Positions 7,683-8,062 of a stretch of 64,000 bases of DNA are shown piece after piece. The stretch lies in assembly GCA_019058445.1 (NCBI GenBank), contig JAHPZA010000009.1:320001-384000 (forward strand), given 5' to 3'. Source of the DNA: Promethearchaeota archaeon (GTDB lineage: Archaea > Asgardarchaeota > Lokiarchaeia > Sigyniarchaeales > SOKP01). Made by a program: the position numbers and the translations under genes. The first letter of the stretch is position 1, and each line of letters opens with the position of its first letter. The notes under the pieces are model-generated. The model was not told the DNA's origin and made no database searches. It saw only the letters and a program-made list of their open reading frames with translations.

Positions 7683-7737
7683 TGATAATATCACCGAGAA
7701 GGTTAGTTAGTAAAAGACATTGAAAATCAATAATTAG

Positions 7738-7874
7738 AGCCAGCGGTGGGATTTGCATCCAAAATGGAAAGCCATTTTAAGTTTTGCACCCACGAATAAC
7801 CGCTCTGCAGGCGGTCTCCTTAACTACTCGGAATTGCGCTATTAGCGTATATGCTATTATATAGATACGCTGGC
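7738..7874 (-). tRNA. tRNA-Cys(GCA) with two non-canonical introns (exons 7874-7866, 7832-7783, 7751-7738)
   Basis: Spliced 73-nt cloverleaf: GCCAGCG TA TCCG AGTAGTTA AGGA G ACCGC CTGCAGA GCGGT TATTC GTGGG TGCAAAT CCCAC CGCTGGC T. It has the U73 discriminator typical of tRNA-Cys, anticodon at 7808-7806, and lies next to cysS. Confidence 0.88.
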
Positions 7875-8062
7875 AAAGACGCTGGCATGTAATACTCTAT
7901 TTAATAATTAATTCCTTATTATGTTATTTTTGTTATATTTATTTAAATATTTAGTTCTAATTGTTTTTTATCTTTTTTCCTTTTAATATATACAAGATTG
8001 AGACTTTGGTTTTATCAAAAGGAGGTTAGTAACTATATTTAAATAAAAATTACGGGAATGAA

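Follow-up and report, generated by a model that had tools for sequence, protein, structure and literature searches.

Non-canonical archaeal tRNA introns have been described in the Thermoproteales and Thaumarchaeota (Marck and Grosjean 2003; Sugahara et al. 2008; both as cited in PMC4090602 and PMC8450103). The non-canonical sites named in the text of PMC4090602 extend from 20/21 to 59/60, with an extreme case at 3/4; 9/10 is not among them. The tRNA genes of Asgard archaea are intron-rich, with introns at non-canonical sites (PMC11291895; Goswami et al. 2026, preprint 10.64898/2026.10.13.758758). In that preprint, the few insertions in the acceptor stem and at the junctions are pooled as "other", and a duplicate in the leader is not mentioned. 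Nanoarchaeum equitans has a further related arrangement in its split tRNA genes (Randau et al. 2005, cited in PMC4033280), where the extra sequences pair mutually in trans and are removed by the splicing endonuclease EndA.

We analyzed a window of 64,000 nucleotides (the whole stretch, to which all positions given without a contig refer) from a metagenome-assembled genome (MAG) of Promethearchaeota, that is, Loki-type Asgard archaea. The genome comprises 4.6 Mb in 10 contigs, has a G+C content of ~31% and is 92.6% complete. The minus strand of the window carries a tRNA-Cys(GCA) gene with an intron assigned to position 9/10, and an additional copy of the 5′ acceptor strand is present in its leader. 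The present intron shares several features with those described for the Thermoproteales and Thaumarchaeota: the introns are short, protein-spliced and located outside 37/38, they have 3-nt bulges around a short helix, several can occur in one gene, and EndA and RtcB are encoded in the genome. Unlike those, the present intron lies at the acceptor/D junction, its splice helix is formed from acceptor-stem bases, and a leader copy is always present. With the published Asgard tRNAs the locus shares the superphylum, the interruption of most tRNA genes, many introns that escape standard finders, and introns gained or lost among close relatives, but the focus of those studies is on Atabeyarchaeia, Freyarchaeia and Jordiarchaeia, whereas the family considered here is of the Loki type. 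As in the N. equitans split tRNAs, pairing by sequence outside the mature tRNA lets a relaxed motif form beside the exons; here, in contrast, the extra sequence would pair in cis with the 3′ strand of the tRNA itself and would be removed by RNase P. As an element the intron is ordinary, although its site is rare, and the interesting and testable part is its coupling to the leader decoy. The locus adds an acceptor/D-junction tRNA intron, checked against relatives, in a Loki-type Asgard archaeon, in a gene overlooked by both ARAGORN and Rfam.

Structure and orthologues of the tRNA-Cys gene

The three-exon tRNA-Cys(GCA) gene occupies positions 7874-7738 on the minus strand and has the following parts.

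7866-7874, minus strand: exon 1, tRNA nt 1-9 (acceptor 5′ strand, U8 and A9)
7871-7868, minus strand: 5′ strand of the central splice helix, nt 4-7 within exon 1
7833-7865, minus strand: intron 1, 33 nt, assigned to position 9/10; without counterpart in 18 orthologue sequences, geometry kept in 7 variants
7783-7832, minus strand: exon 2, tRNA nt 10-59 (D arm, GCA anticodon arm, variable loop, 5′ part of the T arm)
7752-7782, minus strand: intron 2, 31 nt, T loop, position 59/60
7738-7751, minus strand: exon 3, tRNA nt 60-73 (discriminator U73; CCA not encoded)

An earlier sequence-only reading of this DNA had proposed that removal of the 33 nt from 7865 to 7833 restores the D arm of the tRNA. 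This was borne out: with both inserts removed, ARAGORN reports a 74-nt cloverleaf, tRNA-Cys(gca), and the restored canonical cloverleaf has the same junction as the intron-free orthologues. Both tRNA-Cys identity marks, the GCA anticodon and the U73 discriminator, are present. The same reading warned that standard finders may miss the gene; the unspliced gene has no ARAGORN call and no Rfam match at the gathering score; a permissive tRNA scan yields a weak match of 14.8 bits that covers nt 10-42 alone.

The orthologue search with this stretch covered 41 related genomes, including the genome of the window, and the gene was found in 26 of them; the related MAGs titled Promethearchaeota include Loki_b31, AMARA_1S and ABR15. 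In 18 distinct intron-free orthologue sequences, exon 1 runs directly into exon 2 with the junction as proposed, and three of these score 58-63 bits on the Rfam tRNA family RF00005. We regard the gene structure and the junction as established. In a comparison with four DNA runs, the stretch was found to be covered without differences by a contig of 61 kb from a public sediment run; this run is probably the source sample and does not provide independent support. No RNA run with the segment 6255-9899 was found. The ABR15 allele has no intron 2, and it differs from the present allele by a compensatory change from C-G to G-C in pair 29-41 of the anticodon stem. In intron-bearing alleles, the exons remain under constraint. 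Alleles with the intron at 9/10, alleles with an intron at 10/11 and intron-free alleles are all held by one genus, and their coexistence fits the repeated gain and loss published for Asgard tRNA introns (10.64898/2026.10.13.758758).

The tRNA-Cys gene is flanked, on the same strand, by a gene for a PLP enzyme (CysK-like) and by the cysteinyl-tRNA synthetase gene cysS. The latter starts 43 nt downstream of the tRNA 3′ end, and its synteny with the tRNA gene is kept among the orthologues. The intervening segment (7695-7737) contains GGTGAT, a ribosome-binding-like motif conserved in relatives, and tRNA-Cys and cysS may belong to a single transcript. 

U at position 55 is nearly universal in tRNA T loops. 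The T loop of this tRNA-Cys (7783-7788 plus 7751) reads TGCAAAT and has G at position 55. This G55 loop is a lineage trait and not a sign of decay, because the intron-free orthologues adjoining cysS have the same T loop. Judged from its sequence and that of its relatives, the gene appears to be real and working, with two introns of the endonuclease type.

Splice motifs of the introns

Intron 2 has a self-complementary central helix of 4 bp and bulges AA^A and AA^T. For intron 1, a relaxed bulge-helix-bulge had been claimed from the sequence, and all its components (three central pairs out of four, 3-nt bulges and a 4-bp intron stem) were found. In the central helix, nt 4-7 (7871-7868) face 7838-7835: three positions pair (G-C, C-G and G-C) and the remaining one is an A.A mismatch. 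The two 3-nt bulges read TA^T and AT^T. The intron stem is formed by 7864-7861 with 7842-7839 (4 bp), and the inner stem also has 4 bp. Among 20,000 shuffled introns, the motif was seen in 0.15%, counting those with at least three of four central pairs and an adjacent intron stem of at least 4 bp at the exact register.

Seven distinct variants of the 9/10 form were found, in pattern scans of species genomes and metagenomes that specified the exons only and not the leader copy, and all have the same geometry. The latter was tabulated by script, the MAFFT alignment having placed the paired columns inconsistently. The three standard central pairs are present in all seven variants, and the outer position is A.A or A.G. 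The intron stem covaries: it is CTAT/ATAG, CTATG/CATAG, CTATG/TGTAG, or a different stem of 9 bp. An exon-side outer helix closing the 3′ bulge was seen in none of the seven variants. The arrangement corresponds to the relaxed HBh′ motif, with a central helix, both cut sites lying two bases inside 3-nt single-stranded stretches, and a single flanking helix, and not to the strict hBHBh′ motif, which has two 3-nt bulges, four central pairs and both outer helices. Motif geometry and covariation can be counted as established.

A different intron, 30-31 nt long and located at 10/11, is present elsewhere in this genus and family. This second form must be 10/11 because T10 is present on the 5′ side only. 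Here, nt 5-8 are paired with ACGC or GCGC, and the bulges are AT^A and AA^C. All four pairs of the central helix are perfect in four variants, and one of them is G.U in three. A covarying stem of 9-10 bp is present in six of seven variants, the remaining one (L009) being without a contiguous adjacent stem in our table.

In the predicted ensemble of the present allele, the splice helix has a competitor. The intron 7-mer at 7850-7844 is complementary to nt 4-10 and pairs with them at a probability of ~0.95, and the resulting 7-bp helix covers the 5′ cut site; this holds for the present allele and for the four variants closest to it. The predicted probability of the 9/10 splice helix is ~0.014 in this allele and ranges over 0.0003-0.03 when the four closest variants are included. 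Local energies are -6.9 kcal/mol for the splice helix and -9.5 kcal/mol for the competing helix; the enzyme could bridge this gap of 2.6 kcal/mol by capture of the minor fold. A cut beyond the better 4-bp intron partner at 7847-7844 was also considered and was ruled out, since the tRNA would keep nine extra bases.

The leader copy of the acceptor strand

Upstream of the tRNA, the following features were identified.

7880-7886, minus strand: copy of the 5′ acceptor strand in the leader ("decoy"), an exact 7-mer repeat 12 nt upstream of the real one
7875-7879, minus strand: spacer separating the leader copy from the 5′ end of the tRNA, variable in length and sequence among alleles
7941-7955, minus strand: promoter-like AT-rich element (BRE/TATA-like), 66 nt upstream of the tRNA +1 position

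The leader copy is present in 15 of 15 distinct intron-bearing alleles and in 0 of 18 intron-free ones, a contrast that, the alleles being related, perhaps represents three independent events. The copy was no part of the query in any of the searches that yielded these alleles. Its offset is 12, 11 or 6 nt, and the 7-mer is invariant among alleles with variable flanks. This co-occurrence of intron and copy is taken as established. In the literature searched, no description of a leader copy of the acceptor strand was found. The promoter-like 15-mer, allowing at most two mismatches, is located 34-42 nt upstream of +1 in the intron-free alleles and 49-66 nt upstream in the intron-bearing ones. The AT-rich 15-mer presumably acts as a promoter. 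Given its position and the usual archaeal TATA-to-start spacing, the leader copy should be transcribed.

The tRNA-Thr(GGU) gene of the same genome (contig 9, 575629-575758, plus strand) is interrupted by a 29-nt intron, at 8/9 or 9/10, and a duplicate of its own acceptor 5′ strand is located 12 nt upstream. Neither the intron nor the duplicated strand was found in any orthologue among the relatives searched. This gene is an independent repeat of the intron-plus-leader-copy design. The sequence-only reading had treated 9/10 as an uncommon site for an intron; it is indeed rare, but in view of tRNA-Thr(GGU) it is not unique. Anchor scans, which do not pick up genes interrupted in the T stem or in the 3′ acceptor strand, covered ~38 tRNA genes; of these, only tRNA-Cys and tRNA-Thr carry an intron between nt 7 and 11. 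An acceptor 5′ strand is also duplicated upstream of tRNA-Leu(GAG) (contig 1, 127438-127563, minus strand), at 11 nt and within a GTAGG-rich leader; the sole intron of this gene, at 15/16, has a strict motif that folds without the leader.

In the minimum-energy fold of the tRNA-Cys precursor, the leader copy pairs with the 3′ acceptor strand. When 13 precursors were folded without a leader, the true acceptor stem had a probability of 0.36-0.94 and the splice helix one of at most 0.012 in every precursor. Adding the native 24-nt leader lowered the probability of the true acceptor stem to below 0.04, with the copy occupying the 3′ strand, in 13 of 13, and the splice helix reached 0.74-0.99 in eight, namely all five 10/11-form precursors tested, two 9/10 variants, and tRNA-Thr. 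The median splice-helix probability with shuffled leaders was at most 0.024. As a prediction, this structural switch is established. The leader copy is thus predicted to capture the 3′ acceptor strand, freeing nt 4-8 for the splice helix, and the intron at the rare 9/10 site seems to be workable only thanks to the spare acceptor copy upstream.

We propose the following course of processing. Nucleotides 5-7 would pair with three bases near the 3′ end of the intron, nt 4 facing an A, and the two 3-nt bulges would hold the cut sites, with the 4-bp intron stem closing the 5′ bulge. Because this splice helix would borrow acceptor-stem bases, the transcript would carry a second 5′ acceptor strand in its leader. 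The leader copy would bind the 3′ acceptor strand, the precursor would retain a tRNA-like body, and the true 5′ strand would build the splice motif. EndA would then cleave, and RtcB would ligate the exons. Finally, the true 5′ strand would oust the leader copy, and RNase P would trim the leader. We infer this order of steps.

It is rather unlikely, if still worth serious attention, that the leader copy is functionless: the first 6-12 bases would have been duplicated by slippage, the company of the intron would be fortuitous, and EndA would find its motif unaided. Such an origin is consistent with the extent of the repeat unit, which, as would be the case in a tandem duplication, does not stop at the acceptor strand but includes U8, A9 and the initial bases of the intron (10 of 12 positions match); with tRNA-Leu(GAG), where the acceptor strand is repeated without need; and with the present allele, in which the leader lifts the splice helix to only ~1%. 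However, intron and copy co-occur strictly among 15 versus 18 alleles, the copy being arranged in three ways (at an offset of 12, 11 or 6), and the same design is seen again in tRNA-Thr with that gene's own acceptor sequence. Further, the 7-mer is invariant despite the drift of its flanks, and in every precursor folded without the leader the true acceptor stem is predicted to form and the splice helix hardly at all (probabilities as above).

Several other origins of the copy were examined and rejected. It cannot be the true exon 1, as position 8 would be C in several alleles; in the 10/11 form it is without nt 7-9, and the product would exceed or fall short of the right length by one base. A target-site duplication is ruled out by the location of both copies on one side of the intron, and a partial tRNA duplication of the integrase type by size and spacing.

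Cleavage register, splicing enzymes and other tRNA genes

A T is present at the boundary on either side of intron 1, and cleavage at 9/10 or at 10/11 yields an identical spliced product. Of the 9/10 register claimed in the sequence-only reading, the motif geometry was upheld in seven variants, but the sequence alone permits 9/10 or 10/11. It is the geometry, and only the geometry, that favours 9/10; covariation of the intron stem is the best evidence, and cleavage presumably occurs at exactly this position. That cleavage of a genuine intron takes place at 10/11, like that of the congeners' form, or in mixed registers, we regard as quite improbable. Apart from the identity of the products, such a cut is suggested by the congeners, whose second intron form can be placed at 10/11 without ambiguity and has four pairs in its central helix, and by the dominant predicted fold of this allele, in which the pairing of nt 4-10 with the intron resembles that of nt 5-8 in the 10/11 form. 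But at the 10/11 register this allele has two of four central pairs and no adjacent intron stem, its 3′ cut would fall 4 nt past any helix that nt 5-8 can make, instead of 2 nt, and seven of seven variants fit 9/10.

Because a second tRNA-Cys(GCA) gene is present in the genome (contig 1, 166769-166866, minus strand), the gene at 7874-7738 is not the sole source of tRNA-Cys. The second gene has a different acceptor stem and a normal TTCAAAT T loop and is likewise interrupted, by an AT-rich insert in the D loop. It is hardly credible that the gene at 7874-7738 is a decaying copy with a retained insert and that the second one supplies the cell: the presence of the latter, the odd G55 T loop, and a splice motif that is relaxed and thermodynamically disfavoured in this allele are compatible with decay, but the tRNA stems are all intact, a compensatory anticodon-stem change separates intron-bearing alleles, the G55 loop is common to intron-free orthologues scoring 58-60 bits, the location beside cysS is conserved, the intron stem covaries, and the second gene is itself interrupted.

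Returning to the reading of a working tRNA-Cys gene spliced at 9/10, relaxed motifs need a broad-specificity endonuclease, that is, the (αβ)2 type with the L1 loop. The genome encodes an EndA of 202 aa (PF01974 and PF02778; contig 9, 770313-770918) and an RtcB (574 bits). The best solved relative of this EndA is 1A79, the α4 enzyme of M. jannaschii, which has strict specificity. For Asgard archaea, (αβ)2 EndA with the L1 loop and broad specificity has been described (PMC5829648). No second EndA paralogue was found by Pfam or tblastn in this 92.6% complete genome. A single EndA is detectable in this genome, most of whose tRNA genes are interrupted.

Taken as a whole, the proposal of a working tRNA-Cys with a 9/10 EndA intron, a relaxed motif, and a leader copy acting as decoy is probably correct. 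Against it stand the predicted splice fold of this allele, a conformer of ~1% owing to the competing 7-bp helix; the central helix of three pairs in every variant and the 3′ bulge without an outer helix; the one EndA, nearest to the strict-specificity M. jannaschii enzyme; and tRNA-Leu(GAG), which has a duplicated acceptor strand, yet whose motif is predicted to form without the leader.

A broader reading is quite possible but tentative: the leader copy could be a selected cis-acting folding helper that, by occupying the 3′ acceptor strand, licenses introns at the acceptor/D junction, from 8/9 to 10/11, and recurs across Archaea wherever these appear, and the intron could have slid by one base between congeners. 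If true, the leader helper would be a rule for where archaeal tRNA introns can persist, which the recent Asgard census left open. The spare acceptor strand in the leader offers a testable answer to the problem of a splice motif and an acceptor stem that need the same bases, and the duplicated 5′ acceptor strand provides a signature for annotation.

Additional features were observed in other tRNA genes. The T loop of tRNA-Thr(GGU) is unusual, ATCATAG. Inserts of 30-31 nt at T-loop position 59/60 were observed in ~10 other tRNA genes, about a quarter of those seen, for instance in the following.

Contig 6: 1249076-1249179, 1243614-1243744 and 1046196-1046327
Contig 9: 721033-721213

Finally, the metagenome contig Ga0209977_10141446 contains, at ~296-352, an intron-free tRNA-Cys with a different acceptor strand, GCCAAAG. 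A 14-nt fragment located 33 nt upstream of it matches nt 1-14 of the GCCAGCG-type tRNA-Cys and may have been left over when a gene was rearranged or replaced.
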